A stretch of DNA of 14,913 bases. Origin: a virus (taxonomy: Duplodnaviria > Heunggongvirae > Uroviricota > Caudoviricetes). Positions 1-14,578 of this stretch are shown piece after piece. Numbering within the stretch: the stretch's first letter is position 1; every line of letters begins with the position of its first letter. Below the pieces are notes generated by a model. The model saw only the letters and a program-made list of their open reading frames with translations, was not told the origin of the DNA and made no database searches. The stretch is from IMG/VR virus record IMGVR_UViG_3300021467_000082. One strand, 5' to 3'. The position numbers and the translations under genes are program-made.

Positions 1-1
1 G

Positions 2-724
2 CATAAAAAATTAGTAAATGATAACATTGTGTATCAACCATTATTGGATCATTTACTAGGCACAGCCAAAATAGCAGAGGCTTGTTATTATCATATAGCG
101 GGTAATTGGGGGTATGTTGCTGGGCTACTAAAGAAAGCATCACAGGAAGGTCTATCTAAATTACACGAGATACAGAAACATATGTGTAAGGAATACTTTG
201 ACGTGCGCACGTTTGGTGCTGTTATGATTGGTAAAAAAGAAGATTTGGGGCATTTAACAGGCCCATGCCAATTAAGTTTTGCTGAATCAATAGACCCTGT
301 TATTGCAGAAGAGGTTACGATTACTCGTAAGGCAGCAACTAATGAAAAAGAAGAAGTAGATAAACGTAATCAAACGATGGGAGCTAAATATATAATACCA
401 TATGCTCTGTATAAAGGATACGGACATATATCAGCTCATTTAGCTAATCAAACTGGTTTTGATGAGAAGGATTTAGACGTGCTGTTTGAAGCTATAATTA
501 ATATGTTTGATTTTGATAAAGCCGCTAGTCGTGGCGAAATGGCGTTAAGACAATTAATAATTTTTAAACATCAATCACCATTAAGAAATGCACCATCACA
601 TAAGTTATTTGACTTGGTCAGGATTAATAAAGTAGTAGACACATTACCAAGATCGATTTATGATTATAAGATTGAGTTGTTAGATAATCCATACGAAAAT
701 GTAGAAATTATGACTATTTATTAA
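2..724 (+). CDS. cas7: Chimeric Cas3 HD N-terminal fragment fused to type I-C Cas7 (Csd2) C-terminal two-thirds; 5' end runs off the window
   Basis: The frame is open from base 2 (HKKLVNDNIVYQPLL...). Residues from MCKEYFDVRTFGAVM through GPCQLSFAESIDPV, ITRKAAT, TMGAKYIIPYALY, TGFDEKDL, NMFDFDKAASRGEM and FKHQSPLRNAPSHKLFDLV match type I-C Cas7 motifs throughout. Bases 2-130 encode QPLLDHL..TAKIA..GNWGYVAGLL, the Cas3 HD N-terminal pattern. The Cas7 N-terminal NPNGDP and KRKIRN motifs are absent. Confidence 0.9.
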   Translation, partial: HKKLVNDNIVYQPLLDHLLGTAKIAEACYYHIAGNWGYVAGLLKKASQEGLSKLHEIQKHMCKEYFDVRTFGAVMIGKKEDLGHLTGPCQLSFAESIDPVIAEEVTITRKAATNEKEEVDKRNQTMGAKYIIPYALYKGYGHISAHLANQTGFDEKDLDVLFEAIINMFDFDKAASRGEMALRQLIIFKHQSPLRNAPSHKLFDLVRINKVVDTLPRSIYDYKIELLDNPYENVEIMTIY

Positions 725-784
725 TAAACGAATTCCATTATGATAATACATGAATTAAAATAAAAAATAAAAAATAATGGTTTT

Positions 785-936
785 TTCAAAGATTGAATTT
801 TTCGAGCCTGAAAAATTTTTGATAAATAAAATGATATAAAAAAATAAAATATAAATCGAGTTCAAAGACCGAATTTGCCGAGCCTGAAAAATTTTTTAAA
901 ATAAAATGTAATAAAAAATAATAAAATAGTAATATC
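785..936. repeat. Imperfect two-unit tandem repeat, 76 bp period, 36 bp conserved core plus A-rich tail
   Basis: 785-820 ttcaaagattgaatttttcgagcctgaaaaattttt vs 861-896 ttcaaagaccgaatttgccgagcctgaaaaattttt (32/36 identical); both are followed by similar A-rich tails. Confidence 0.8.
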
Positions 937-1039
937 AAAAAGAAGGACGAAAAACCAAAATTATAACTAAACTATAACTATTAAGAATGAAGAATGTTGG
1001 ACGTGAAGAATGGAAATTAAGAAAGGAAATATGATAGGA

Positions 1040-1067
1040 GAGGCCCTACCTATATAGGAAGGGCCTC
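1040..1067. terminator. GC-rich hairpin between convergent genes, probable terminator
   Basis: gaggccct-a-cctatatagg-a-agggcctc: an 8 bp inverted repeat enclosing a 10 bp palindrome, 11 nt past the stop of ORF 1079-1450. The U-tract is weak. Confidence 0.55.
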
Positions 1068-1078
1068 AAATAGGGAAG

Positions 1079-1450
1079 TTAGGTAGATTGAGCAGGAGGT
1101 CCCAAAAGGGCAGAAGCTTTGTCCCAGTAGTCATCAATTGACATATTTAATATTTTAGTTATAAATGTTTCAAAGCCTTTTTTCATAAGCTCGGTCGGTT
1201 TTGAATATTTCAATAAATTAATTGAGTCCTTAAAATTCAATTTCCATTTATTACATAATTCTTTAATTCTCTTTATATCAGCGCCTAGTGCTAATGCTTC
1301 CAATACAACTGTCCATGCTGTTTCTCGATTTGATGTGTCTATCAGCCATACCTTCTTAACAAATGGACTATCAAAATAATCGTCAGTAGCCACTACAGGG
1401 TTTTTGCCTATTAAATCACCATTTGTATGTAAATAATAATACCATTGCAT
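1079..1450 (-). CDS. Hypothetical protein, 123 aa
   Basis: ORF track; GGGGA SD-like sequence upstream; collinear with the operon; no family recognised. Confidence 0.75.
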   Translation of the reverse strand: MQWYYYLHTNGDLIGKNPVVATDDYFDSPFVKKVWLIDTSNRETAWTVVLEALALGADIKRIKELCNKWKLNFKDSINLLKYSKPTELMKKGFETFITKILNMSIDDYWDKASALLGPPAQST

Positions 1451-1464
1451 AATAATTCCCCCTA

Positions 1465-2226
1465 TTATAAATTATATAAATGTCCTTCATACGCTTCAAT
1501 TATTTGTGACGCTCCTATATATCCATCTCTATTCTCTCTCTGTGGACATGGTGAAATAGTGCCGTCAGGAAATACCCACAGCGCTTTTGCCGTTATACAT
1601 TTTTTAGTACATCCATTACATAATTTTCCCTTATTTTCTTGGATGCCTGTGTATCGACTTTTAATTACATAACTAGGATATTTCTGCGAAATTTCTTCAA
1701 TATGTTTCCGTAAAACTTCTGTTTTATTTGAAAAGAAATCGGTAAATAGTTTAATAGGTATTCTATATTCTCCGTAATAAGAAACAATTTTATCCAACAT
1801 TTCCAGATTTTTCTCAGTAACAACTATTTGAATTTGTCCGTTAATTGCTTTTAGAGTATCACGATCTGGATATAACGCACCAACATGCCAACAATCGACT
1901 AAACTATCAATTCCTAAATCCAATGCTGTTCCATTAGTATTTATTTTTATAAAAGGCTTGAATTTTTTAGTAAAAGAGACCAGTTCAGTTAAATGAGGGT
2001 ATATACCTGGTTCGCCCCCACTAAATTCAACTTGTGCTTTTTCCTTCATTATGCTACAATAGTCTTTTATTATATGTTTGGCTATATTTAGATTTAAAAA
2101 TATTGGCTTACTGATAGGTTTTTTTTGAAAATCATTTAAACAGTGATAGCAGTTTTTATTACACCCGTTTGTTACCAATATCCTGAGTCTAAAATCATTC
2201 TTATGAATTTGTTTATCGAATATCAT
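1465..2226 (-). CDS. Radical SAM protein (MoaA-like, with C-terminal twitch/SPASM-like cysteines)
   Basis: RILVTNGCNKNCYHC (CxxxCxxC), FSGGEP and INTNG motifs, plus C-terminal CNGCTKKC...PDGTISPC; GGAG SD. Confidence 0.88.
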   Translation of the reverse strand: MIFDKQIHKNDFRLRILVTNGCNKNCYHCLNDFQKKPISKPIFLNLNIAKHIIKDYCSIMKEKAQVEFSGGEPGIYPHLTELVSFTKKFKPFIKINTNGTALDLGIDSLVDCWHVGALYPDRDTLKAINGQIQIVVTEKNLEMLDKIVSYYGEYRIPIKLFTDFFSNKTEVLRKHIEEISQKYPSYVIKSRYTGIQENKGKLCNGCTKKCITAKALWVFPDGTISPCPQRENRDGYIGASQIIEAYEGHLYNL

Positions 2227-2339
2227 AATTTAACTCCGTTTGTTCGTTATTTTCAATCAGGTGTCCGCACGAAGCACGACAGTCTATTTTTAGCTGTTTG
2301 GTTTAATTACTCTTATTTATCGCGAATTCTGTAACATTT

Positions 2340-2900
2340 TTATGTAAGTTTTAGCTTCGCGCGTTCAAAATCTTTAACTACCCTTTCAAAGTGTATATGT
2401 TTTACACCACCTCCCCGCGCTAAATAACTAGGATGGTAAGTACAAACAACTGGTATTTTCATATAAAATAAATTATCCATAGTCCGCAATTGCCCAATTC
2501 TTGCATCAGTGCCTAATAAATATTGAGATACATCGCCACCTAATAATATAATGACTTTAGGCTGTATAAGATGCAGCTGCACCAACAAATAAGGTAAGCA
2601 AGCAGACATCCATTCCTTTCTTAAAGGTAGTCCTGGTTGTACAAAACATTTTACCAAATTAGTAATATAAAAATCGGAACTGCTAAATACTCGATCTAAT
2701 ATGACATCAAGTATTTTACCAGCAGTTCCGACAAATGGTTTTCCTATTTGATTTTCTTCGGGTCCAGGGCACATTCCACAGATAAATACATCTCTTCCAT
2801 TCCCCCGTGCAAATACGGGTTTATTTCGTCCTGCATATAATTCGCAAAATGTGCATTGTGCGGCTTGTTCCTGTACCTTTTCCATCATAATATCTGCCAT
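2340..2900 (-). CDS. Uracil-DNA glycosylase family 4 ([4Fe-4S]) with variant motif A
   Basis: CxxC at the N-terminus, GMCPGPEENQIGKPFVGTAG, ITNLVKC, ACLPYL..Q..LIQPKVIILLG and TYHPSY. Confidence 0.9.
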   Translation of the reverse strand: MADIMMEKVQEQAAQCTFCELYAGRNKPVFARGNGRDVFICGMCPGPEENQIGKPFVGTAGKILDVILDRVFSSSDFYITNLVKCFVQPGLPLRKEWMSACLPYLLVQLHLIQPKVIILLGGDVSQYLLGTDARIGQLRTMDNLFYMKIPVVCTYHPSYLARGGGVKHIHFERVVKDFERAKLKLT

Positions 2901-2920
2901 ACTTTTCCTCGTATCATATT

Positions 2921-3061
2921 CTATTTCCTACGACAAGGTCCTCGTCTACCCCCTCTACCTCTACCTATTCCTTTACCTGGGCCTCTACCACGGCCTCTGC
3001 CACGGCCATCTCTCGGCCCTCTACTACCACGTCTTGGTCCGGTTCCATCTCTATTTGGCAT
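2921..3061 (-). CDS. Arg/Gly-rich microprotein, 46 aa, DUF5320-like N-terminus (missed by ORF track)
   Basis: Hand translation MPNRDGTGPRRGSRGPRDGRGRGRGRGPGKGIGRGRGGRRGPCRRK*; AGGAGGT SD 7 nt upstream; overlaps the end of the upstream gene by 11 nt. Confidence 0.8.
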   Translation of the reverse strand: MPNRDGTGPRRGSRGPRDGRGRGRGRGPGKGIGRGRGGRRGPCRRK

Positions 3062-4496: not shown

Positions 4497-4573
4497 TGGG
4501 GCGACTGGCAGGATTCGAACCTGCATATACAAGGGCCACAACCTTGCGCCTAAACCATTCGGCCACAGCCGCC
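4497..4573 (-). tRNA. tRNA-His(GUG), with G-1:C73 and encoded CCA
   Basis: G-GCGGCTG/CAGTCGC-C-CCA acceptor; CAAGG-TTGTGGC-CCTTG anticodon arm; GCAGG-TTCGAAT-CCTGC T arm. Confidence 0.96.
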
Positions 4574-4642
4574 ATTACGAATTTAACAGATTGCCTGATC
4601 GCAAATCTGTTTTTTAATCTCACCATCTTTGTTCACAATGGT

Positions 4643-4840
4643 TTAGCCTCCATAGTAGTCATCTATTTCATACTTTAATTCGTCTAATACAAAATCTCTG
4701 TATTTAAATTCGCCATTTATAACGGCCCAATATTCTCCATTACGCATATCTTGTACTATATCAAAGCCTCTATAAGCAGCGATAAATTCATATACATTTT
4801 CCGTTGCACTTTTCGCCACACTTTCCATTAATGTCATCAA
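4643..4840 (-). CDS. Hypothetical protein, ~60-65 aa (start uncertain)
   Basis: ORF track; GGAG SD upstream; protein-like composition. Confidence 0.65.
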   Translation of the reverse strand: MMTLMESVAKSATENVYEFIAAYRGFDIVQDMRNGEYWAVINGEFKYRDFVLDELKYEIDDYYGG

Positions 4841-4973
4841 TAGTCTCCTTGAGATATTTTTTTATTAATTGTTGAATGGCATATTCAACTAACAATTTAA
4901 TTTCTTCTTCGGTCAGCTCTAATTCCAGCGTAGCTGACCCGTCTTTATGTTCTGTTAGGTTCAATACTTTCAT
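4788..4973 (-). CDS. Hypothetical small phage protein, 61 aa
   Basis: ORF track; AGGA SD; EHKDGSAT..ELTEEE pattern; overlaps the next ORF by 53 nt. Confidence 0.65.
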   Translation of the reverse strand: MKVLNLTEHKDGSATLELELTEEEIKLLVEYAIQQLIKKYLKETIDDINGKCGEKCNGKCI

Positions 4974-4977
4974 AATA

Positions 4978-5244
4978 CTATCCTTTCAATATATTAATTA
5001 GAGTTAATGCCGATATTACCAGACCAACAATAATGTTGATAATGGTCAACACTTTCCATGCTATAGCAACCGTGCCTTTACATTTTTCGGCCACTTTCTC
5101 CGCTGTTAGATCAATATAATGCTTTAACTGAGCATCATCAATGGCTGGTTCTTTTTCACGTTTTTCTTGAGGTGGCCTTGGAACTATCGGTATTCGATAG
5201 TTATATGTAAGTTTTTCAAATATACTAAATGGGTTATGTTTCAT
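4978..5244 (-). CDS. Hypothetical membrane protein with one C-terminal TM helix, 88 aa
   Basis: Hydrophobic C-terminus VLTIINIIVGLVISALTLINIL; GGAG SD. Confidence 0.7.
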   Translation of the reverse strand: MKHNPFSIFEKLTYNYRIPIVPRPPQEKREKEPAIDDAQLKHYIDLTAEKVAEKCKGTVAIAWKVLTIINIIVGLVISALTLINILKG

Positions 5245-5274
5245 GACTCTGCTCCATTATGTATAATCATTATA

Positions 5275-5350
5275 TGGCTGGCGTGGCAGGACTCGAACCT
5301 GCGACCCGGTGATTAACAGTCACCTGCTCTGCCAGCTGAGCTACACGCCA
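5275..5350 (-). tRNA. tRNA-Asn(GUU), CCA encoded
   Basis: TGGCGTG/CACGCCA-G-CCA; GGTGA-CTGTTAA-TCACC; GCAGG-TTCGAGT-CCTGC. Confidence 0.96.
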
Positions 5351-5353
5351 TCT

Positions 5354-5500
5354 TTACCTGCCCTGTCCTCTATAAGGCTTGAAACTACGTTTTGCATGTT
5401 TATTTTTTGGCCTACTATTTCTTGATAGCCCAATAGATGTTCTAATATGTCGTTTGGTAATTCTCGGTATTTTAGATTTTTGTTCTTTTGCTCTAGCCAT
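5354..5500 (-). CDS. Highly basic microprotein, 48 aa, ending YRGQGR (missed by ORF track)
   Basis: Hand translation MARAKEQKSKIPRITKRHIRTSIGLSRNSRPKNKHAKRSFKPYRGQGR*; GGAG SD; overlaps the upstream stop by 8 nt; fills the gap up to tRNA-Asn. Confidence 0.8.
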   Translation of the reverse strand: MARAKEQKSKIPRITKRHIRTSIGLSRNSRPKNKHAKRSFKPYRGQGR

Positions 5501-5750
5501 TATCCACTCCCATTTCTAATTCTTTTTGTTTTTGTAGTTCCAATCTTTTTAATTGAGATGCTCTTTTTAATGATCGTTTAACAGCATAATCCAACAATTT
5601 TTCGCCGTGATTTACTACTTCGCTGCTTATTTCTTCAATAATTTCAGGCCATGTTTCAAACATGTATTCGGCAAAATTTAAAGAAGTTTTTTCTGTTAAT
5701 TTGTCGAATATCAATTCTTCTACATCACATTGATCAAATAAAGCATTCAT
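5493..5750 (-). CDS. Hypothetical protein, 85 aa
   Basis: ORF track; AGGAGGT SD directly after the tRNA-Tyr 3' end. Confidence 0.75.
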   Translation of the reverse strand: MNALFDQCDVEELIFDKLTEKTSLNFAEYMFETWPEIIEEISSEVVNHGEKLLDYAVKRSLKRASQLKRLELQKQKELEMGVDNG

Positions 5751-5765
5751 AATAATACCTCCTTT

Positions 5766-5848
5766 TGGAGAGGGGAGGATTCGAACCCCCGAAGACTGAC
5801 GCCAGCAGGTTTACAGCCTGCCCCCTTTGACCGCTTGGGTACCTCTCC
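5766..5848 (-). tRNA. tRNA-Tyr(GUA), long variable arm, CCA not encoded
   Basis: GGAGAGG/CCTCTCC-A; GCAGG-CTGTAAA-CCTGC; GGGGG-TTCGAAT-CCTCC; followed by AAA. Confidence 0.95.
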
Positions 5849-6079
5849 TTATACATCATAGACAGAAATGAAAGTTTTATCAAACCCTAAATAATTACCT
5901 ATTCTATAGTCCAATTTATAATCATCTAGTACTCCAACGACTAGCTTTTGCATAACTGGACTATGTCCGATAATTATTTTTAACTCATTACCTGTGTTCC
6001 AATTGGCTTCAATGAATCTAATGACTTCCCTTTCGACTTCAGCGTGTCTGATACCGTGTAAATCTAATGTTTTAACCAC
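5849..6079 (-). CDS. Stand-alone Smr-domain-like protein, 76 aa (GTG start)
   Basis: KTLDLHG motif at the N-terminus with helix-strand spacing to IIIGHS. A GGAGG SD precedes the GTG at 6079, so the ORF-track start at 6121 is probably too long. Confidence 0.6.
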   Translation of the reverse strand: MVKTLDLHGIRHAEVEREVIRFIEANWNTGNELKIIIGHSPVMQKLVVGVLDDYKLDYRIGNYLGFDKTFISVYDV

Positions 6080-6248
6080 ATCTAGTCCTCCATACATCAG
6101 ATGGCATCCACTGCTCATCATAAGTTAATTTGTTATAACTATTTTTCAATCGTTTAAATCTTGCCCGATATAGATAATTATTTAATGTTAATTTATCGTC
6201 CAACATTTCTTCTATTAATTCCAAGGCTTCTTTTAATAGTTGCTGCAT
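6072..6248 (-). CDS. Hypothetical protein, 58 aa (missed by ORF track)
   Basis: MQQLLKEALELIEEMLDDKLTLNNYLYRARFKRLKNSYNKLTYDEQWMPSDVWRTRCG*; AGGAGGT SD; overlaps the next start. Confidence 0.7.
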   Translation of the reverse strand: MQQLLKEALELIEEMLDDKLTLNNYLYRARFKRLKNSYNKLTYDEQWMPSDVWRTRCG

Positions 6249-6251
6249 CGC

Positions 6252-6803
6252 CTACCTCCTATACACACCTTGACTAAATATCCATTGTTCCTTCTCATAT
6301 ACTAATTGCTTTAATTCGACCGTATAATATTGTTCCGGTGGTTCATGATCCGTTTTATATATATGTGGGTAACTATCCGTATTTACAATTTCTTCTAAAT
6401 CCTCTAGCAAATTTTCTAACCGTATAAATTTTATATTGCTTGGCAATTTTCCATCTATCAGTAACCAGTTATCATAGCTCAACATATGCTCGCAATAATA
6501 TTGGACGAAGTCTCCAAATGGCAGTTTTGCTAATTTTCTCAAATACTTGTACCGCTTGTCCGGATTAACTTTTGACCAATGCCATAAAGATACAATTCTT
6601 GCTAACGGATGTCTAATTGGCGTCAATATTGTGTAGTCTTGTACATTGGTCAATTGCATTTTTACATTCAATGGTTCATGTAGTTTCTCTTTTTTTATAA
6701 TTTTATACTTATTGTTCATATTTTTGAGATGTTCGCTTAAACTGGTACCACCAGTACGTGGAATGTGGAATACTGCTAATTTGTTGTCAGGCCATGTTAT
6801 CAT
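6252..6803 (-). CDS. Sulfotransferase family 2 (PAPS-dependent) protein
   Basis: 5'-PSB-like FHIPRTGGTSL and 3'-PB-like IRHPLARIVSLW motifs; IKFIRLENLLEDL. Confidence 0.82.
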   Translation of the reverse strand: MITWPDNKLAVFHIPRTGGTSLSEHLKNMNNKYKIIKKEKLHEPLNVKMQLTNVQDYTILTPIRHPLARIVSLWHWSKVNPDKRYKYLRKLAKLPFGDFVQYYCEHMLSYDNWLLIDGKLPSNIKFIRLENLLEDLEEIVNTDSYPHIYKTDHEPPEQYYTVELKQLVYEKEQWIFSQGVYRR

Positions 6804-6900
6804 TTATCTTCCTCCAGCGCTGATTTAACTTTAATGCGCTGATTCCATGATTCTGCAAAGTTTACAAGCTACGCAATTCATAGTTCAGATGACTAATTAA

Positions 6901-7395
6901 TTATTTTCTAGTTTTAGGGTCTATGTATTTCTCCATTCCTATTTTTCTCAATATTTCTTTCTCTGTATGTGCCACACGATTTCCGTCTTTGTCCCATAAG
7001 CCGTATTCGTTTAATCTGTACCCCAATTTTTTAGCATTTGATCTGCACCTAATATTAAACCATTTAGAGCCCGTAAAATACAGTTTACCACTTTCAAATG
7101 TGTCATCATCAAATACGGCGATATCAATTTGTAAATCATTATTTAATACAAATCTTATATTCCTTTGGCCATATACTAAGCTTTTTCCATGTTCTTCATT
7201 TAGTATATTTTCTATACTACTACAAAACTCACCAAATTTATGCGGTACAACTACGATATCAATATCTCCTACTTCTGATTTTCCTCTTCGTATAGATCCG
7301 CATACTTCTATTTTTTTAGCTAATATTCTTTTGGTTATACTATCAGCTATAGCTTTTGCTTTTTCTAACTCGAATTTTTTTCCAAATCCGCCCAT
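6901..7395 (-). CDS. Minimal X-family DNA polymerase (palm plus thumb only), 164 aa
   Basis: CGSIRRGKSEVGDIDIVV (DxD), QIDI (third Asp), LYFTGS, AKKLGYRLNEYGL and TEKEIL..IGM..IDP. Confidence 0.9.
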   Translation of the reverse strand: MGGFGKKFELEKAKAIADSITKRILAKKIEVCGSIRRGKSEVGDIDIVVVPHKFGEFCSSIENILNEEHGKSLVYGQRNIRFVLNNDLQIDIAVFDDDTFESGKLYFTGSKWFNIRCRSNAKKLGYRLNEYGLWDKDGNRVAHTEKEILRKIGMEKYIDPKTRK

Positions 7396-7413
7396 AAAAA
7401 CGCCCCTTTTGAA

Positions 7414-7487
7414 TGCGCCTGGCAGGATTCGAACCTGCGGCCTGCGGATTAGAAGTCCGCTGCTCTATCCAGCTGAGCTACAGGCGC
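7414..7487 (-). tRNA. tRNA-Arg(UCU), CCA not encoded
   Basis: GCGCCTG/CAGGCGC-A; GCGGA-CTTCTAA-TCCGC; GCAGG-TTCGAAT-CCTGC; followed by TTC. Confidence 0.95.
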
Positions 7488-8102
7488 CTAGTCCCACCAA
7501 CCTTCGATATTATCTGCCATAATATTAAATAATCTTTTGCGTAATCTGTTTTTTTCTTCTTCTTCTTTCGTGATTAATCTTTTGAACTCTTTTTCTGCTT
7601 CTCTATATTCATTCTCTGTTTGTACTTTTTCATATCCTCCTTCTGCTATGGATAATCCGTTTTCCATTTTTCTGAATGTTAATTTAATATGTCCATATTT
7701 TTTATAGAATTCACCAAACTCTTCTTCTAATACATTATCTTCAATTAATACGTCCAATATCCTAATGCATTCATCAATTTCTTTTATTTCCTTGTCTACA
7801 ACAGTAACAGAATGTAACTGCATGAATCGTTTCACTTTGGCTAATTTAGCTTTTAGAATGACGTAAATAAAGAAATAATCCCAATCTCTATCATACCATA
7901 TATATGGTAACCAATAAATTAGATTTCTACACGGAGTTTTAAGTCTATTAAATCTTACTTTAGGAATTTCTATCAAAGGATGAAGTTGGATATTTTTGAA
8001 TTCTTTATAATTAATCTTGCAGCTTAAATAATCATATTTTAATTCCTTTAACCAGCCTTTGAAATTATTATAGATTTCTTTACACCATTTATAAAAGTAC
8101 AT
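7488..8102 (-). CDS. Hypothetical phage protein, 204 aa
   Basis: ORF track; GGAGG SD; the stop codon abuts the tRNA-Arg +1 base. Confidence 0.8.
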   Translation of the reverse strand: MYFYKWCKEIYNNFKGWLKELKYDYLSCKINYKEFKNIQLHPLIEIPKVRFNRLKTPCRNLIYWLPYIWYDRDWDYFFIYVILKAKLAKVKRFMQLHSVTVVDKEIKEIDECIRILDVLIEDNVLEEEFGEFYKKYGHIKLTFRKMENGLSIAEGGYEKVQTENEYREAEKEFKRLITKEEEEKNRLRKRLFNIMADNIEGWWD

Positions 8103-8118
8103 TTAAGCCTCCACTGTG

Positions 8119-8192
8119 CGGAGCCTATGGGATTTGAACCCATGTTACCGACGTGACAGGCCGGCGTTCTGGCCAGACTGAACTAAGGCTCC
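8119..8192 (-). tRNA. tRNA-Asp(GUC), CCA not encoded
   Basis: GGAGCCT/AGGCTCC-G; CCGGC-CTGTCAC-GTCGG; ATGGG-TTCAAAT-CCCAT; followed by CAC. Confidence 0.94.
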
Positions 8193-8208
8193 AAATTTTG
8201 TTGTGATT

Positions 8209-8874
8209 CTACCTTAAGTGATTAATTTTATCTGGTGTCCAATGTTTAAGCCAATTTTCATCAGTTTGTATATGATTCTCTCTTACGTATTTCACTAGCT
8301 CCATAAAAAAATTAGAGGGATATAATATTTCGTCATCTATTCTAATTACATAACCCTCAGACTCTCTATCTAGACTTTTACAATAATTTAGCCAAATTTC
8401 ATGGATTTTATCTTCATCATATACTCCACGATATAAGACTGGTACTACAGATAATTCAATTTGTGTAATTTGTGCTATCCTATTTATTTCTTCTATCATA
8501 TCATCCCAACGTAACATATACTTATCTAGCCATATTGAAAAGACATAGAAATAAGATTCTAAATCATTATATTTTATACTATGTGTAGCATACATATTTT
8601 CGCCACATATCCTCATTCCTGGTTTAATAGCGTATTTTATACTATTCCATATAGCTTTAATCATATCTCTAGACCTATGATGCGAGTTTTGACTATTTAA
8701 TGCTCTAGCATGGATTGCGTTCCTATACATTGTAGTGTTTTCACCATCCAATTTTTCTGTTACTACCACTATTTTATTGTTAAATATTTCCATTTGTGGA
8801 TGGATTTTATCATCGTTAAAACATTTGCTCCAAGGTAAATGATAAGTCCGTGGGTATTTATATAAAACTTCCAT
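8209..8874 (-). CDS. ATP-dependent RNA ligase family protein (adenylyltransferase domain only), 221 aa
   Basis: KYPRTYHLPWS N-terminus, motif I TEKLDGEN, ICGEN (III), FYVF (IIIa), EGYVIR (IV) and KYVR (V). Confidence 0.88.
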   Translation of the reverse strand: MEVLYKYPRTYHLPWSKCFNDDKIHPQMEIFNNKIVVVTEKLDGENTTMYRNAIHARALNSQNSHHRSRDMIKAIWNSIKYAIKPGMRICGENMYATHSIKYNDLESYFYVFSIWLDKYMLRWDDMIEEINRIAQITQIELSVVPVLYRGVYDEDKIHEIWLNYCKSLDRESEGYVIRIDDEILYPSNFFMELVKYVRENHIQTDENWLKHWTPDKINHLR

Positions 8875-8909
8875 AATATATCCCCTAATATTTAAAATTA
8901 GCGTTTGTT

Positions 8910-8998
8910 CAGGCTGACATGTTATCGACTACTGGATTTACATCCAGCCGCATGGAATATAGTTTCCACTTTCCTTATTTATTGCTGAAGTCAGCCTT
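8910..8998 (-). ncRNA. Putative structured RNA, UUCAGCAA element copy A
   Basis: Minus strand A-AGGCTGAC-TTCAGCAA...CAT-GTCAGCCT-G: 8 bp terminal stem and two internal hairpins (TGGAA/TTCCA, CTGGA/TCCAG); no ORF; 26 nt downstream of tRNA-Ser(GCU). Confidence 0.7.
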
Positions 8999-9020
8999 AT
9001 TTCTATGTTTTATGTCTCAT

Positions 9021-9116
<96 letters not shown>

Positions 9117-9228
9117 ATACCAATAATTACCAAGAATAAGCAGCCAAAAATTCATCAAGCGGTTTAGTTCGTTTGAGAAATTCTTGGTAATGTTTTTCAC
9201 AAACATACAAGGCTGCACCCATTTATGC

Positions 9229-9798
9229 TTATAGTTTAATATTTTTCTCGTTAGCCACTATTTTCCATGTATTCATAAAATCAGCATCAAATTCTTGGAC
9301 AACACCTTTATCTAAAAATTTTCTAAACTCTCTGTTTACAAACTCTTCCAGCGATTTGTCAGAGAATTCTCCTAAATTAGTTGCCAATAACTGTAGTGGT
9401 GAATAAGTAGCATCTTTGAAGACTGCTCCTTGTATATAAGCCGCGAATAAATCGGCGCCTTCTAAGTTAGCAGCAGTCAAATCTGCTCTATTCAAATAGG
9501 TAAATCGTAAATTTGCATTGGTCAATATGCTATTTCTCAATATACTTCTTATTAAATAAGCCTTTTGTATGATAGCATTAGACATATTAGCATAGCTAAA
9601 ATCTGCTTCCATTAGATTAGTATGGCTCAGATTTGTGCCTCGTAAATCACATCCCCTAAAATTCGCTCGGCTCAAATTTGCTTCTCTGAAATCAACGTTT
9701 CGTAAATCTGCATTTTCAAAATTGGCGCGATACAAATTGACTCCTTGAAAAGATCTTTCACCTTGTCCGTACTTAACTATAACATCTTCGGCTTTCAT
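9229..9798 (-). CDS. Pentapeptide repeat protein, 189 aa
   Basis: Many A(N/D)(L/F)xx repeats (ANFEN ADLRN VDFRE ANLSR ANFRG...). True start is MKAEDV at 9798 with a GGAGG SD; the ORF-track extension runs into tRNA-Ser. Confidence 0.92.
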   Translation of the reverse strand: MKAEDVIVKYGQGERSFQGVNLYRANFENADLRNVDFREANLSRANFRGCDLRGTNLSHTNLMEADFSYANMSNAIIQKAYLIRSILRNSILTNANLRFTYLNRADLTAANLEGADLFAAYIQGAVFKDATYSPLQLLATNLGEFSDKSLEEFVNREFRKFLDKGVVQEFDADFMNTWKIVANEKNIKL

Positions 9799-9837
9799 TC
9801 CATCCTCCCAATTAATAAAATATGTTATCATATAAGA

Positions 9838-9927
9838 TGGAGGAGGGAGAGGGATTCGAACCCCCGGTTCCCGAAGGAACATGTGATTTCAAGTCACACG
9901 CCTTAAACCAGACTCGGCCACCCCTCC
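9838..9927 (-). tRNA. tRNA-Ser(UGA), CCA encoded, U73 discriminator
   Basis: GGAGGGG/TCCCTCC-T-CCA; TGTGA-CTTGAAA-TCACA; variable arm GTTCC-TTCG-GGAAC. Confidence 0.95.
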
Positions 9928-9947
9928 CATTTATTCATTTCAATTAT

Positions 9948-9976
9948 ATTATAACATATAATTATAAAAATGTAAA
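9948..9976 (-). promoter_or_regulatory. Sigma70-type promoter upstream of tRNA-Ser(UGA)
   Basis: TTTACA, 17 nt spacer, TATAAT, with an extended -10 TG, in the AT-rich gap between tRNA-Ile and tRNA-Ser. Confidence 0.75.
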
Positions 9977-9981
9977 CCATT

Positions 9982-10052
9982 TGGCGAGAGCTGGAATCGA
10001 ACCAGCATCGAGCGATTATCGGTCGCTTATTCTACCGTTGAACTATCCCGCC
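9982..10052 (-). tRNA. tRNA-Ile(GAU), C33 instead of U33, CCA not encoded
   Basis: GGCGGGA/TCTCGCC-A; AGCGA-CCGATAA-TCGCT; GCTGG-TTCGATT-CCAGC. Confidence 0.92.
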
Positions 10053-10059
10053 TATTAAT

Positions 10060-10461
10060 TTAATCATCTTTAATCCATTCTTCATAACAATTATCACATA
10101 AAACTTTACTCCATTTAATCTTGTTCAATTTTAATCCGCCAGGTTTGCCGCATGTTTCACATGTAGTTAATGATCTATATTCTGCCTCTGTTACTAGATG
10201 TCTTACAGCATCGGCTATTTGTTGAGAAGTTCCATTGGGAAATGAATAATAAAACCTTAACGAACCAAATTTTTCTTTTACTTGATCTGCAACTACTCCA
10301 CCTATTGCTTCTAATACATTTGATAACCAATCTATTAAATCATACCACCCGTCGCCACAAGTAAATCCCCAACCCATAGCCGATTCATAGATTGAAGCGT
10401 TGTAATTTTTATATAGATTGGGATATTTCTTAACTAATTTTTGCTCTAATTCTTTTCGCAT
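10060..10461 (-). CDS. Hypothetical phage protein with C-terminal CxxC zinc ribbon, 133 aa
   Basis: CGDGW...QVKEKFGSLRFY...CETCGKPG...CDNC, a pattern I recognise from phage hypothetical proteins; AGGAG SD. Confidence 0.82.
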   Translation of the reverse strand: MRKELEQKLVKKYPNLYKNYNASIYESAMGWGFTCGDGWYDLIDWLSNVLEAIGGVVADQVKEKFGSLRFYYSFPNGTSQQIADAVRHLVTEAEYRSLTTCETCGKPGGLKLNKIKWSKVLCDNCYEEWIKDD

Positions 10462-10465
10462 ATTA

Positions 10466-10669
10466 TTACTCCTTTAAGATAATATCTAAAGCTTTCTTTA
10501 GTAGTTTTAACGCACCGTCATCATACTGATGTTCGATTAGAGTGTTTTCGAATCCTTCCGGTTTAACTATTTTATAGACATTATCTCCATTTTCACCCGT
10601 TTTTATGCGTTGGATAAATATTGTATCTATATATTCTACTCTATTAACTGATAAATCCACAACTAACAT
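10466..10669 (-). CDS. Hypothetical protein, 67 aa
   Basis: ORF track; AGGAG SD; overlaps the upstream stop. Confidence 0.7.
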   Translation of the reverse strand: MLVVDLSVNRVEYIDTIFIQRIKTGENGDNVYKIVKPEGFENTLIEHQYDDGALKLLKKALDIILKE

Positions 10670-11099
10670 CTTGCAACTCCTTTGATAAATACTCGCTCAA
10701 TTCTTCATCTATTTCAAACGAATCTTCTATATATTCTCCTGGGTATGGTAGTGAATCTTCATTTCTAACTTTTTCAATAGCTTCTTCTAATGATTTAGCT
10801 TTTACTAATACAGTTGCACTTTCTTCCCATCTACAAGCTATTTTATAATATTTTTCCTTGGCTGGCGGGGCAGGATTCGAACCTGCGTTCCGAGATCCAA
10901 AGTCTCGTGTCCTACCTGTTGAACGACCCGCCATTAAGTGATGTGTTGTTCTAAAAACTCGTAGAGCGTTACGTATAAATTTCAAGGTTCCATGTGTTGA
11001 TATATTTCCAACACCTTCTATCCAATCATTCATTTCTAGTGCTTCTATATCTTCATCTGTCAAATTAGGTATATCTTTTAAGTAAATTTTTTTACCCAT
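10644..11099 (-). CDS. Hypothetical protein, 151 aa, reading in frame through tRNA-Gln
   Basis: GGAG SD at the start and no stop through the tRNA. The acidic C-terminal part (KYYKIACRWEESATVLVKAKSLEEAIEKV...) has no ATG/GTG/TTG of its own after the tRNA. Confidence 0.6.
   Translation of the reverse strand: MGKKIYLKDIPNLTDEDIEALEMNDWIEGVGNISTHGTLKFIRNALRVFRTTHHLMAGRSTGRTRDFGSRNAGSNPAPPAKEKYYKIACRWEESATVLVKAKSLEEAIEKVRNEDSLPYPGEYIEDSFEIDEELSEYLSKELQDVSCGFIS
10859..10933 (-). tRNA. tRNA-Gln(UUG), CCA encoded
   Basis: TGGCGGG/CCCGCCA-G-CCA; CGAGA-CTTTGGA-TCTCG; GCAGG-TTCGAAT-CCTGC. Confidence 0.95.
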
Positions 11100-11496
11100 T
11101 TTTAATCTCCTTCAATTTTAAATAGTTAGCTAATGTAGGTTCCCAATCGCTGTCTGTTGACCATACAGCTTTTTTAATTAATTCTTCTACTGGTTTGTTT
11201 TCATTGCCGAATCGTGCGTGCATTTCATATAAAACGTATAATGTTTCGCCTAACTCGTCAGCAATTTGTTTTAATATTGGTGCGTCGAAAGTTAAATCTA
11301 AGTCTCCATGCCAAATTTTACCTACGGACTTGATTATTACGTTTGCATTAAATATCACTAAGTTGTCCGGATATCTATTAGTATAGCCAGTTTTAGATCC
11401 ACTTACCATTCTACTGATAATTAATCCATGCTTTTCGAATATTTTGACATATTCCTTTACTTTACTATGATCAAAATCTGATGGATATTGAAACAT
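11092..11496 (-). CDS. Hypothetical phage protein, 134 aa
   Basis: ORF track; GAGGAG SD; 8 nt overlap with the next gene. Confidence 0.8.
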   Translation of the reverse strand: MFQYPSDFDHSKVKEYVKIFEKHGLIISRMVSGSKTGYTNRYPDNLVIFNANVIIKSVGKIWHGDLDLTFDAPILKQIADELGETLYVLYEMHARFGNENKPVEELIKKAVWSTDSDWEPTLANYLKLKEIKNG

Positions 11497-11498
11497 AA

Positions 11499-11762
11499 TT
11501 AAATCTCCTCTATATCAAATATTTCTATTTTGTTACCACTTAAAATTTCTATTTTTTTTCCACAGTATGGACATTTCTGTTCAGTTATATAAATAAATTT
11601 ATGTTCATACATATATGGCCCATTAGGATCATCATACCAAGTTGATAAGACTTTACACGGATAGGACATTGGCTCTCCAATATGTCTATGCTGATACCCA
11701 CTATTTTCATCTAAAAATTTTTTATAACTTTCAAAATCCTTTTCGTTATATAATGTAATCAT
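11499..11762 (-). CDS. Hypothetical protein with C-terminal CPYC, 87 aa
   Basis: ORF track; ATGA-coupled to the upstream gene. Confidence 0.75.
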   Translation of the reverse strand: MITLYNEKDFESYKKFLDENSGYQHRHIGEPMSYPCKVLSTWYDDPNGPYMYEHKFIYITEQKCPYCGKKIEILSGNKIEIFDIEEI

Positions 11763-12109
11763 ACAATCTTCTCCTTTAATTTGTCTCTGCCATACTCCAA
11801 TGCTTCTATAAAAGCTTCTATATGTTCTTTTTCTTCAATAACGATGTCATCTTCATATTCAAAATAACCATGAATTAAAATGTTATATGCTTTTTTAATT
11901 CGTAGTTTTAATCGCTGAAACCAATTCAAATCTTCCCATGTATCAACTACGTCTATTTTTCTATAAAAATGTAGATAGATATCATTCAGTTCTTTATCAT
12001 ATTCCAATTCAATAGTAGTATCATGAAAATCAGCATCACATCCGCACGCCAATCTAAAATAAACAGCGTCATCAAATTCTGATAACTTCATTACTCTATT
12101 GGATATCAT
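11759..12109 (-). CDS. Hypothetical protein (gene B of duplicated block, intact), 116 aa
   Basis: ORF track; ATGA coupling at both ends; paralogous to the C-terminal half of ORF 12662-13180. Confidence 0.8.
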   Translation of the reverse strand: MISNRVMKLSEFDDAVYFRLACGCDADFHDTTIELEYDKELNDIYLHFYRKIDVVDTWEDLNWFQRLKLRIKKAYNILIHGYFEYEDDIVIEEKEHIEAFIEALEYGRDKLKEKIV

Positions 12110-12348
12110 TCTACCCTCTTTTTTACATAGTTTATAATCTTTGTCAATTCTTTTACAAAATTTTCCATCTCTTTTAACGCTTTTTTACCACTGAAAACAA
12201 AAACCCGTTGTGATGGAGAAGTTCTACACGCTTTAGAATACATATAGCACTCAGATAATTTATTATCTTTTAGTATAATTGTTAACTCAAATCTATTATT
12301 TTGAATAGAGAAAGCATGTTCATAATATTCTTTCTTTGTATATTCCAT
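12106..12348 (-). CDS. Hypothetical protein (gene A of duplicated block, intact), 80 aa
   Basis: Start MEYTKKEY at 12348 with a GGAG SD, shorter than the ORF-track call. Confidence 0.75.
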   Translation of the reverse strand: MEYTKKEYYEHAFSIQNNRFELTIILKDNKLSECYMYSKACRTSPSQRVFVFSGKKALKEMENFVKELTKIINYVKKRVE

Positions 12349-12352
12349 AATT

Positions 12353-12439
12353 TCACTCCAACAATTCATTAAAATCGTCAATTAATACTTGTTTAAATTC
12401 AGGGTCTAACTCTACTAAATTATATTTATTTAAATAGAA
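12353..12439 (-). pseudogene. C-terminal remnant of gene Z (paralog of 13476-13766)
   Basis: LNKYNLVELDPEFKQVLIDDFNELLE vs LNKHNLVELEPEFEEILVKRFNELLE (18/26 identical); preceded by an in-frame TAA, no in-frame start. Confidence 0.8.
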
Positions 12440-12503
12440 TTACACAAATTATTAAAATCATAACTCCCATTATAATCCTCTTTCCATGTTTTAGTTTATA
12501 ATT

Positions 12504-12576
12504 TGCTCCGAGGGGGATTCGAACCCGCCGTCACAGGATTGAAAGTCCTGTATCCTAACCATTGAACGACCGGAGC
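12504..12576 (-). tRNA. tRNA-Glu(UUC), CCA not encoded, C:C mismatch in T stem
   Basis: GCTCCGG/TCGGAGC-A; CAGGA-CTTTCAA-TCCTG; GCGGG-TTCGAAT-CCCCC. Confidence 0.92.
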
Positions 12577-12661
12577 ATTTATCTATCACCCTTAAGCGTT
12601 TTAAGTATTGTTTTAACATTTCTTGGTCGCTCTAATTTTGATAGTTCATATTCTAAGGTTC

Positions 12662-13180
12662 CTATAAAAGCATATATAAACTATCACTTCCATTAATAAC
12701 AATGGCATCTTCGTATTCAATAAAACCATGTACCAAAAGGTTATATGCTTTTTTAATACGTAGTATAAGCCTTTTAAACCAACTTACGTCTTTCCGAGTA
12801 TCTACTATATTAACTGTTCCATAGAAACTTAGAATATTATTAAATTCCTTATTATATTCTAATTCATCAGCATCACGAGCGCGCGCCAATCTATGAAATA
12901 CGACATCATCAAATTTTGATAATTTCATAACGCGATTTGCCGGTATAGGTCTGTGTCGCCCACTTTTATTCCTGTTGTTAACTCTTTCTGTAAGATAAGA
13001 CTTCTCTTCATAGGAGAAATAGCCTATCAAATCCTCCGGTCTAGCCGTAACCCCTCTTAATTTCATGTTCCTTACATCAGCTGGTTTCCATGGAATATAA
13101 ACCCATTCGCCTTGTTTTAATTTATGCTCGCCGGCAATTCGTTCTGCGTCTTTAAACCGTTTAGCACTGATAAGTTTCAT
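12662..13180 (-). CDS. Fusion ORF: unrelated ~81 aa N-terminus plus degenerate copy of gene B, with C-terminal frameshift
   Basis: Residues 82-162 align to ORF 11759-12109 with a 7-aa deletion and CGC->RAR. Removing 2 nt from the AT run at 12672-12678 restores AFIGTLEYELSKL (cf. AFIEALEYGRDKL) up to a stop at 12579-12581. Confidence 0.7.
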   Translation of the reverse strand: MKLISAKRFKDAERIAGEHKLKQGEWVYIPWKPADVRNMKLRGVTARPEDLIGYFSYEEKSYLTERVNNRNKSGRHRPIPANRVMKLSKFDDVVFHRLARARDADELEYNKEFNNILSFYGTVNIVDTRKDVSWFKRLILRIKKAYNLLVHGFIEYEDAIVINGSDSLYMLL

Positions 13181-13189
13181 TTCTTACCT

Positions 13190-13479
13190 CTATTTTGATT
13201 TATTATTTAATGTAACTGCATATGATTCGTTTTTAACTTCATCACAGAATCGTAATAGATTTGTAGCAAAAACCTCTAAGGAAGTAAAACATCTTTTACC
13301 TTTAAATCTAACAACATCTTTACATATACTATAGTCATAATTACTTATTTAGCAATAGTCTAATGCACCATTATAAAAAGAATGATACATTAGACTATCT
13401 TTTTATGTAGACGTACTTCAAATTTTATATGATCTATATGAAATGTCTCTTCTATAAATTCTTCTTTGGTGTAATTCAT
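13190..13479 (-). pseudogene. Decayed paralog of gene A (frameshift plus premature stop)
   Basis: MNYTKEEFIEETFHIDHIKFEV vs MEYTKKEYYEHAFSIQNNRFEL; after a frameshift at the A-run 13400-13404 and a TAA at 13349-13351, VVRFKGKR..LEVF..L...VK vs VFVFSGKK..MENF..L...VK. Confidence 0.72.
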
Positions 13480-13766
13480 TTATCTTCCTCCAATAATTCA
13501 TTAAACCTTTTTACTAATATCTCCTCAAACTCTGGTTCTAACTCCACTAAATTATGTTTGTTTAATTTATTTTCTAGGTTTGATAATGAAGCATAAAATG
13601 CTTTTGTAGTTGTTATTTCAGTTTCAAATATGTCAGATGGATTTACACTTGTTAATCCAATTTCTATCATAATCGAGCCTAAATGATCTGCGTCATAATT
13701 CTCAGACAGTCTATTGATTAATTCTTGAACTTTTTCTAATTTTTTTAGTTCAACCTCAATTCTCAT
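13476..13766 (-). CDS. Hypothetical protein (gene Z of duplicated block, intact), 96 aa
   Basis: ORF track; GAGGT SD; ATGA-coupled to the A paralog. Confidence 0.8.
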   Translation of the reverse strand: MRIEVELKKLEKVQELINRLSENYDADHLGSIMIEIGLTSVNPSDIFETEITTTKAFYASLSNLENKLNKHNLVELEPEFEEILVKRFNELLEEDK

Positions 13767-13799
13767 TATAACCTCACTTATATCCCATTATTGTTATAT

Positions 13800-13872
13800 T
13801 GGAGCGGAAGGAAGGAATCGAACCTTCATCTGTAGATTGGGGATCTACCGCTCTACCATGAGCTACTTCCGC
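13800..13872 (-). tRNA. tRNA-Gly(CCC), C33 instead of U33, U73, CCA encoded
   Basis: GCGGAAG/CTTCCGC-T-CCA; GTAGA-TCCCCAA-TCTAC; GAAGG-TTCGATT-CCTTC. Confidence 0.92.
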
Positions 13873-13876
13873 TCAT

Positions 13877-13939
13877 CAGAGTGGCGCTTTGGCGTTTGGA
13901 TTAGCCGTCCAGACCAATATGTTTGCTGAAGCCACTCTT
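13877..13939 (-). ncRNA. Putative structured RNA, UUCAGCAA element copy B
   Basis: Minus strand A-AGAGTGGC-TTCAGCAA...GCCACTCT-G; internal TGGA-CGGCTAA-TCCA hairpin; 4 nt upstream of tRNA-Gly. Confidence 0.7.
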
Positions 13940-13960
13940 ATTAATTATTTTTTTACTAAG

Positions 13961-14044
13961 CAGGATGACATGCCAAGGCTAATCGGATCTTATTCCGACT
14001 AGTAAAGGATTTGAACCTTTTGTATTTTTGCTGAAGTCATCCTT
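13961..14044 (-). ncRNA. Putative structured RNA, UUCAGCAA element copy C
   Basis: Minus strand A-AGGATGAC-TTCAGCAA...CAT-GTCATCCT-G; contains the T-arm-like AAAGG-TTCAAAT-CCTTT and a 9 bp hairpin CTAGTCGGA-ATAAGA-TCCGATTAG; 6 nt downstream of tRNA-Leu. Confidence 0.72.
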
Positions 14045-14050
14045 ATGTGT

Positions 14051-14138
14051 TGGCCCAGGTGGGATTCGAACCCACACGGGTGACTAGCACCAAGGGATTT
14101 TAAGTCCCTTCCCTGCTACCTTGTTCGGGTACTGGGCC
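14051..14138 (-). tRNA. tRNA-Leu(UAA), long variable arm, CCA not encoded
   Basis: GGCCCAG/CTGGGCC-A; AGGGA-CTTAAAA-TCCCT; GTGGG-TTCGAAT-CCCAC. Confidence 0.94.
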
Positions 14139-14269
14139 TTATTTTTTCATTTAAATATTTAAGATATGACACAGTTTTTTCCACCATCTGGATAGACAAC
14201 CACTACTGTTAATCTATTGTCTTGGTTTCTATCATACGGACCATATATTCTACAATTTTCATACACCAT
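14139..14269 (-). pseudogene. Probable relic N-terminus of a phage HNH homing endonuclease
   Basis: MVYENCRIYGPYDRNQDNRLTVVVVYPDGG. Removing one A from the 6-A run (14175-14180) gives KTVSYLKYLNEKI, resembling the YGPY...DG..TxSYPKYL leader of phage HNH proteins; the frame then enters tRNA-Leu with no HNH core. Confidence 0.55.
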
Positions 14270-14270
14270 A

Positions 14271-14462
14271 TTAATATTTTCCAGTTAATACTGCTTTTTC
14301 TAGTTGGTTTAGTGCGTAATCCAATTCTGCCAATACTCTCATTATATGTGAACAATTCGTAAAAGTAGTTACTTCTAATGCATATTTAGCGCAGTCATCA
14401 ATATTATTTTTGATAGTTTTAATTTTCTTTAGGAAAGTGTTCTGGATAGAAATATCATTCAT
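14271..14462 (-). CDS. Hypothetical protein, 63 aa
   Basis: ORF track; GAGGAG SD. Confidence 0.72.
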   Translation of the reverse strand: MNDISIQNTFLKKIKTIKNNIDDCAKYALEVTTFTNCSHIMRVLAELDYALNQLEKAVLTGKY

Positions 14463-14507
14463 ATTTATCTCCTCTTTTTGGTTAAATTAGAATTAATTAC
14501 TTATGTT

Positions 14508-14578
14508 TAGGGCCACCGAGAATCGAACTCGGATCAACGGATTAAAAGTCCGCTGCTCTACCACTGAGCTATGGCCCT
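14508..14578 (-). tRNA. tRNA-Lys(UUU), A1:U72, CCA not encoded
   Basis: AGGGCCA/TGGCCCT-A; GCGGA-CTTTTAA-TCCGT; CCGAG-TTCGATT-CTCGG. Confidence 0.93.

Follow-up and report, generated by a model that had tools for sequence, protein, structure and literature searches.

An in-frame fusion of cas3 and cas7c fragments in a giant-phage-like genome, a probable scar of a single deletion in a type I-C CRISPR-Cas module

Organization of the fusion locus

The window analysed here, the 14,913 nucleotides of IMG/VR record IMGVR_UViG_3300021467_000082, begins inside a reading frame that is open in frame 2 from base 2 to a stop codon at 722–724 and whose 5' end runs off the window. The upstream sequence is available in contig L008, in whose coordinates window base 1 is position 726 and thyX ends at 418, and the ATG of the frame lies 24 nt 5' of the window start. 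The complete product (P0002) is 248 amino acids long and joins the first 50 codons of a cas3 gene in frame with the last 198 codons of a cas7 gene. An in-frame chimera of a Cas3 leader and an N-terminally truncated Cas7c had been proposed in a preliminary description of the window, and this is borne out by profile matches for the Cas7 part and by alignments with Cas3 proteins for the leader. The ORF of ~240 codons given there is indeed uninterrupted, although its full length is 248 amino acids with the ATG outside the window, and the frame switch placed at 130/131 does not exist: a single frame is used throughout and only the homology changes, within positions 117–130. Judged by its sequence, the product is a Cas7c fragment plus a Cas3 fragment and an intact member of neither family. 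The features within the window are:

2–724, plus strand: fusion ORF P0002, last 240 codons and stop (full ORF 248 codons)
2–127, plus strand: cas3-derived segment, Cas3 residues 9–50 (BLASTP, phmmer, nucleotide alignment)
117–130, plus strand: deletion junction (three-way alignments with cas3 and cas7 of L023 and L012)
128–721, plus strand: cas7c-derived segment, residues 89–287 of intact relatives and fusion residues 51–248 (profiles, alignments)
725–1078, no strand: AT-rich spacer from the fusion ORF to the minus-strand gene at 1079–1450
1079–1450, minus strand: homologue (78% amino-acid identity) of orf118, a 118-aa ORF located after cas7, in the same orientation, in L012

Those upstream of the window are:

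L008:431–446: type I-C repeat remnant of 16 nt, directly after thyX
L008:481–512 and 548–579: full repeats between spacers S1, S2 and S3
L008:616–652: degenerate last repeat
L008:675–685: extended −10 element TGTGTTATAAT, followed by GAAGGA (691–696) and ATG (703)
L008:675–705: the whole start region—extended −10 element, GAAGGA Shine-Dalgarno and ATG—24–51 nt upstream of the window

A CRISPR mini-array thus lies 50 nt upstream of the fusion ORF. The preliminary description had noted no array downstream; the window itself contains no CRISPR repeat, yet one array is present just outside it, on the upstream side. The order of array, degenerate repeat, TGTGTTATAAT and ATG is the same as before the intact cas3 of the related phage L012, and since neither the cas3 promoter nor the ribosome-binding site is damaged, expression of the fusion ORF probably continues. 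The array is eroded: no leader is present, 16 nt are left of the first repeat, and the spacers number two to three, compared with at least five to eight in relatives. S2 and one repeat are absent in some samples (L001, L007), and the fusion is linked to both forms of the array. Scans of IMG/VR with spacers S1 and S3 found no target beyond the arrays themselves. Exact copies of the phage repeat occur in arrays of Kiritimatiellae, Lentisphaeria, Muribaculaceae and Ruminococcus metagenome-assembled genomes (L016–L022), which are weak leads to a host.

The neighbours of the fusion include ThyX, a radical SAM protein, UDG and RlaP; none of them is acr- or aca-like or otherwise related to anti-defence.

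Intact modules in related phages

The related phage-like contigs L010/L023 and L011/L012 carry an intact cas3 (714–716 aa), cas5 (202 aa), cas8c (556–566 aa) and cas7 (281–287 aa) in this order, without cas4, cas1 or cas2. RlaP, UDG, a zinc-ribbon gene, ThyX, a methyltransferase and orf118 are common to these genomes and the window's phage. The array is located upstream of cas3 in L012 and downstream of cas7 in L010 and L023. Both cas5c and cas8c are present in the relatives; in the window, in L006 (another contig of the same phage) and in a 68-kb sister contig neither gene was found, nor was a further Cas3. CheckV estimates 24% completeness for the 68-kb contig, so the genome is not complete and a second cas locus may lie elsewhere in it.

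In the window the orf118 homologue converges on the fusion ORF. From gene order, the cas remnant is inverted and displaced with respect to the L012 arrangement and lies beyond the orf118 homologue; it follows that these phages differ by more than one rearrangement. A simple inversion between array copies was considered and rejected, since it does not give the orientation of the orf118 homologue. The homologue itself is intact and 123 aa long in the window; four other assemblies have a 1-nt indel (L006:8909–9281) and a 104-aa gene is called there, reflecting either a population polymorphism or a homopolymer error.

The L010 and L023 operons are 96.8% identical and none of their five to six spacers is common to both (L010:4800–5250, L023:15490–15854), with no cas1, cas2 or cas4 between cas7 and the array; array turnover thus appears fast, with adaptation proteins presumably supplied in trans. 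The last spacer of L010 (5181–5213) matches thyX of the window's phage (L006:7136–7168; L001:9372 onwards) with two mismatches, at positions 7 and 31, and a 5' TTC PAM stands directly before the match. The same spacer matches the thyX of L011/L012 (L012:10690–10658, minus strand), again with two mismatches, at positions 7 and 19, and has no perfect target in IMG/VR beyond arrays. The match beside the TTC PAM suggests that these sibling giant phages probably aim type I-C systems at each other.

Origin of the two parts

The Cas7 part is recognized directly by profiles, as the preliminary description had anticipated. TIGR02589 (type I-C Cas7/Csd2) aligns residues 47–228 of the window ORF with profile positions 87–272 of 284 (E 2e-59) at 201.3 bits, above the curated cutoff of 182.25, and PF05107 gives 200 bits over positions 79–248 of 249. 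Among 5.8 billion proteins, the closest intact Cas7c relatives (281–287 aa) are P0003 (85% identity) and P0004 (78%), and the next are at 55% or below; at the nucleotide level, identity to L023:14714–15312 is 80.7%. The fusion joins the Cas7c alignment at A-E/D-L-L-K-K-A-S, residues 87–93. What remains comprises some of the helical region, the FDVRTFGAVM strand and the C-terminal part. Residues 1–88 are gone, and with them the N-terminal strand, the loop with NGNPNGDP and the KxKIR helix. Some of the columns lost in this way do not vary among 40 homologues, G-N-P-N-G-D-P and several K/R being among them; Cas3-derived residues stand in place of the missing columns, and the complete Cas7c fold is not preserved.

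The leader is traced by pairwise comparison. Fusion residues 1–50 are 76% and about 50–58% identical to the Cas3 N-termini of related phages. BLASTP aligns the leader with the Cas3 of L012 (P0122, 716 aa; TIGR01596 cas3_HD at 21–179, plus TIGR01587) from residue 2/3 to 50/51 at E 4e-17. A phmmer search of 1.84 billion proteins with fusion residues 1–52 gave four matches, the best being the 714-aa P0123 of L023 (76% identity over residues 2–50, E 1.3e-16), whose gene sits in the cas3-cas5-cas8c-cas7 operon of that genome. The leader is collinear with both Cas3 proteins from residue 2–5, and its DNA is ~80% identical to L023:10034–10155. A Cas3-HD profile match for the leader, expected from the preliminary description, was not obtained: the first ~43 window residues alone matched no Pfam or NCBIfam profile with an E limit of 10, being too short a piece for that, and it is the pairwise and protein-library searches that settle the Cas3 origin. 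A word-index search for longer proteins with the same leader found nothing.

Where the Cas3 proteins of L012 and L023 read G-L-Y-H-D-x-G-K, the fusion reads G-L-L-K-K-A-S. The Cas3 homology stops one residue short of the H-D dyad, exactly the cut just before the catalytic HD that had been described. The start of the HD domain with its first His (LLDHL) is kept; the H-D dyad, the later HD motifs and the DEAD/ResIII helicase core are absent.

An AlphaFold model of the fusion has a mean pLDDT of 79.6; the model was used neither for the leader nor as evidence of stability, since the high confidence and the strand at residues 7–15 are a product of MAFFT placing the Cas3 leader under the Cas7 N-terminus. 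The closest solved structures to the Cas7 part are the type I-C Cas7 chains 7KHA_B, 9JHB_C and 8G9S_B; the model gives a Foldseek E of 4e-22, and the intact relative P0003 matches 7KHA_B at E 5e-74. Residues 51–248 are clearly homologous to Cas7 (Csd2) of the Desulfovibrio vulgaris and Neisseria lactamica Cascades (PDB 7KHA, 8G9S, 9JHB), whereas ~88 N-terminal residues of those proteins are exchanged for 50 unrelated Cas3 residues. Complex prediction of the Cas7 part with the intact Cas7 P0003 scored 0.24, against a mark of 0.32, and carries no weight either way.

The junction in other assemblies

A chimeric contig, or a linear contig joined end to start, could produce such an ORF, and the source sample gave cause to test for this. 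Window positions 1–127 are identical to the final 127 nt of a 68,408-bp contig of the same sample (3300021467 / Ga0190334, IMG/VR and JGI), and the graph branches or breaks at the junction there, the overlap ending at base 127. Neighbouring contigs of a k=127 de Bruijn assembly overlap by 127 nt, so the window probably opens a sister contig. Within four contigs from other samples and assemblers the 248-aa protein recurs unchanged, with 160–7,800 nt upstream of its ORF and 3.4–10 kb downstream:

ENA ERZ27247985 k141_233111 (28.7 kb): spans the junction
Logan SRR7051211: spans the junction
JGI 3300021482: spans the junction
JGI 3300021491: spans the junction

The 68-kb contig contains nothing of window 128–3000. 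Together with the four spanning contigs, this rules out a wrap-around or chimeric contig, and an assembly artefact is extremely improbable.

A probable single deletion between cas3 and cas7

Relative to the L023 operon the two halves of the fusion have diverged to the same extent, at ~80% nucleotide identity (window 2–123 and 131–729), and the stretch missing between them measures 4551 bp on L023, exactly 1517 codons, and 4594 bp on L012. These values and the intact relatives support the single deletion of the Cas3 core, cas5, cas8c and the Cas7 N-terminus that the preliminary description had postulated. Across the junction, TGCTGGGCTACTA is similar to the cas3 parent as well as to the cas7 parent (TGCTG..CTA), where cas3 reads GTTG.TGG.TT. 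and cas7 reads ..TGCTGATCTATTA in L012; because of this dual resemblance the breakpoint is placed at 117–130 and no finer, and the resemblance points to a short imperfect microhomology at the break.

We propose, with a probability of roughly 0.7, that the ORF is the scar of one internal deletion of ~4.55–4.6 kb in an adaptation-less phage type I-C module, and a young scar of decay. Before the event the module would have consisted of a mini-array, a promoter and cas3-cas5-cas8c-cas7. The deletion would have run from a short stretch in cas3 codon ~47–50 to a similar one in cas7 codon ~86–89, with the reading frame kept by chance. Comparison with the relatives shows the losses: Cas3 beyond residue 50, the whole of Cas5c and Cas8c, and Cas7 up to residue 88; from these it follows that the phage can no longer assemble its own Cascade or cut DNA. 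The fusion product would most likely be inert or unstable, and the eroded mini-array an orphan, workable only with Cas proteins supplied in trans. Set against the divergence from the closest intact relatives, the deletion would be recent.

Several observations count against a decay scar: the fusion ORF has no stop or frameshift, the cas3 promoter and ribosome-binding site before it are intact, and, being linked to both array variants, the fusion has outlasted at least one later rearrangement. The few amino-acid changes in the Cas7 part, the L010 spacer match to thyX and the incompleteness of the genome weigh on the same side.

Distribution and age of the fusion

Copies of the fusion locus are 99.95–99.98% identical to the window over 4–10 kb and identical within the ORF, and represent one near-clonal population. 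Among 5.8 billion proteins the fusion forms a single cluster with one member sequence and has no diverged copy. The search for the same junction in related phages, proposed at the outset, therefore succeeded in part: the junction recurs in the four other contigs, all of this population, and in no diverged phage. A megablast search of Phage GenBank with the sequence returned no match.

Twenty-nine of the 32 IMG/VR contigs that bear Cas7c match the full-length query. The three partial ones were rejected as comparable fusions, as their matches lie at contig or provirus ends or at a prophage boundary. One such provirus prediction (L041:4474–6543, IMGVR_UViG_2808606716_000002) closes with a Cas7c ORF whose first residues are the conserved MCKNFFD (residue ~108), and a CI/LexA-like repressor and a Cro-like gene immediately precede it; the probable explanation is a prophage that has entered, or lies beside, a type I-C cas7 of its host.

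Synonymous sites are saturated among the three close cas7 sequences (pS 0.67–0.73), and as dS between lineages is uninformative for this reason only dN branch lengths were used. The branch to the Cas7 part of the fusion is the shortest of the three (0.037, versus 0.056 and 0.095), with six lineage-specific residue changes versus 10 and 22; one of the six, S182A, is at a site invariant in 38 outgroups. Given the short branch and the few changes, the fragment has been neutral for at most a few percent of the branch or else is still constrained. The lack of excess amino-acid change would fit either a young deletion or a constrained fragment, and the two are inseparable because all copies of the fusion are identical.

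The preliminary description had offered two endings, a repurposed Cas7 mimic and a fresh decay product. The latter is favoured by the restriction to one near-clonal population, the eroded array and the lack of anti-defence neighbours; the absence of comparable truncated Cas7c in IMG/VR and the missing core likewise favour a young scar.

A possible inhibitor or a possible advantageous loss

The fusion could instead act as a Cas7-derived inhibitor, a defective backbone subunit that would join or cap a type I-C Cascade or bind crRNA. Its target would be the Cascade of the host or of a co-infecting sibling phage, in a mode like that of AcrIB3 and AcrIB4. The ORF is intact behind a conserved promoter, its Cas7 part carries no excess of amino-acid change, and the sibling phages have Cas7 proteins 78–85% identical to it, as an inhibitor would suggest; the two-mismatch match of the L010 spacer to the phage's thyX, beside a TTC PAM, makes a benefit from disturbing type I-C Cascade conceivable, which is a motive for an inhibitor and not proof of activity. 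Frame preservation is one outcome in three for any deletion, a prior that counts for a scar and against an inhibitor. Also against an inhibitor are the confinement of the fusion to one near-clonal population with no diverged homologue, the loss of the first 88 Cas7 residues with their invariant positions, and a location that adjoins an array and no acr/aca locus. Cas-derived anti-CRISPRs that build a defective Cascade are documented (bioRxiv 10.1101/2023.06.24.545427; PMC13131331). As in these, the fusion is a viral gene homologous to a Cas subunit, in a tRNA-rich, giant-phage-like context; its position is not that of an orphan, with an array 50 nt upstream and neighbours that are not acr/aca, and it occurs as one sequence in one population and is not retained across diverged mobile elements. 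On this balance we regard an inhibitor as unlikely. The more specific proposal that the fusion is a newborn dominant-negative Cascade subunit, made from the old cas3 promoter with leftover repeat RNAs and poisoning the type I-C system of sibling phages or the host, is slightly more doubtful still.

The deletion itself may have been advantageous, by shedding the interference genes and keeping the mini-array for use with type I-C proteins of the host or a co-infecting phage. The array would then serve as guides, or as repeat decoys like RacrIC1, and the fusion ORF would be an irrelevant by-product. Huge phages with arrays and without interference genes have been proposed to use host Cas proteins (PMC7162821), and repeat RNAs such as RacrIC1 inhibit type I-C (PMC10651486; PDB 9JHB). 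The exact repeat matches in arrays of Kiritimatiellae, Lentisphaeria, Muribaculaceae and Ruminococcus genomes, and the 96.8% identical L010 and L023 operons with no common spacer, suggestive of spacer uptake in trans, are in keeping with such a use. The array of the window's phage, however, is leaderless, has lost half of its first repeat and is shrinking, and spacers S1 and S3 have no target in IMG/VR; an advantageous loss is thus a minor possibility beside the young decay scar.

Comparison with known systems

Deletion-scar cas pseudogenes are known from bacteria, for example in the partially deleted type I-E loci of E. coli and Shigella. As in those, an internal deletion has joined the 5' end of cas3, without a change of frame, to the 3' end of a gene further along a type I cas operon; the promoter survives and all effector function is gone. 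The differences are that the carrier is a giant phage, that no adaptation genes were originally present, that the downstream partner is cas7c, and that no recurrent breakpoint is known. The fusion would work most like these bacterial scars, in an unusual carrier.

Huge phages have been described with compact arrays and without cas1, cas2 and cas4, using a Cas5d-type processing enzyme and likely targeting competing phages (Al-Shayeb et al. 2020, PMC7162821). L010/L023 and L011/L012, with their intact operons, are systems of this adaptation-less kind, except that another helicase replaces Cas3 in the type I-C variant of that study whereas the relatives here have a regular HD-helicase Cas3; the window's phage differs in being without the effector genes.

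AcrIB3 (Cas5-like) and AcrIB4 (like the C-terminal domain of Cas8b), described by Katz et al., are likewise viral proteins homologous to part of a Cascade subunit, and AcrIB4, like the fusion, is only a fragment-sized homologue. Those proteins are diverged (~38% identity), lie in anti-defence loci away from arrays, and have been shown to inhibit (bioRxiv 10.1101/2023.06.24.545427). The fusion, in contrast, is 85% identical to a working relative, stands behind an array and occurs in one population.

As a scar the fusion is ordinary, indicating that phage-borne CRISPR-Cas modules erode by the same short-homology deletions as bacterial cas operons. The comparison also describes a giant-phage clade with regular, Cas3-containing, adaptation-less type I-C modules, whose arrays vary in position, turn over quickly and hold at least one spacer directed toward thyX of a sibling phage. 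Should the fragment prove active, no younger step from cas gene to Cas-derived anti-CRISPR would be known; were the dominant-negative proposal true, the birth of such a protein by a single deletion would have been caught.

Other features of the phage genomes

The AT-rich spacer that follows the fusion ORF contains a GC-rich hairpin near 1036–1066 and two copies of a 36-nt motif, TTCAAAGAyyGAATTTnnCGAGCCTGAAAAATTTTT, at 785–820 and 861–896; the motif occurs nowhere else in the window and in none of the shuffled sequences. On the minus strand, window positions 4497–14578 hold thirteen tRNA genes among small ORFs, an RNA ligase, RlaP and a Pol X-like gene, as is typical of a giant phage. The thyX of this phage (L006:5829–7523) encodes 564 aa with a LAGLIDADG region between two Thy1 halves, an intein-like arrangement, and the ThyX of L012 has 200 aa.

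A solitary type I-C repeat lies between two small genes in L023 (2845–2879), and a second, two-repeat mini-array is found on the opposite strand near DUF551/thyX in L012 (~10000–10110, minus strand) and L011 (~6780–6890). The solitary repeat and these second mini-arrays may be Racr-like units or substrates of the rearrangements that distinguish these genomes.
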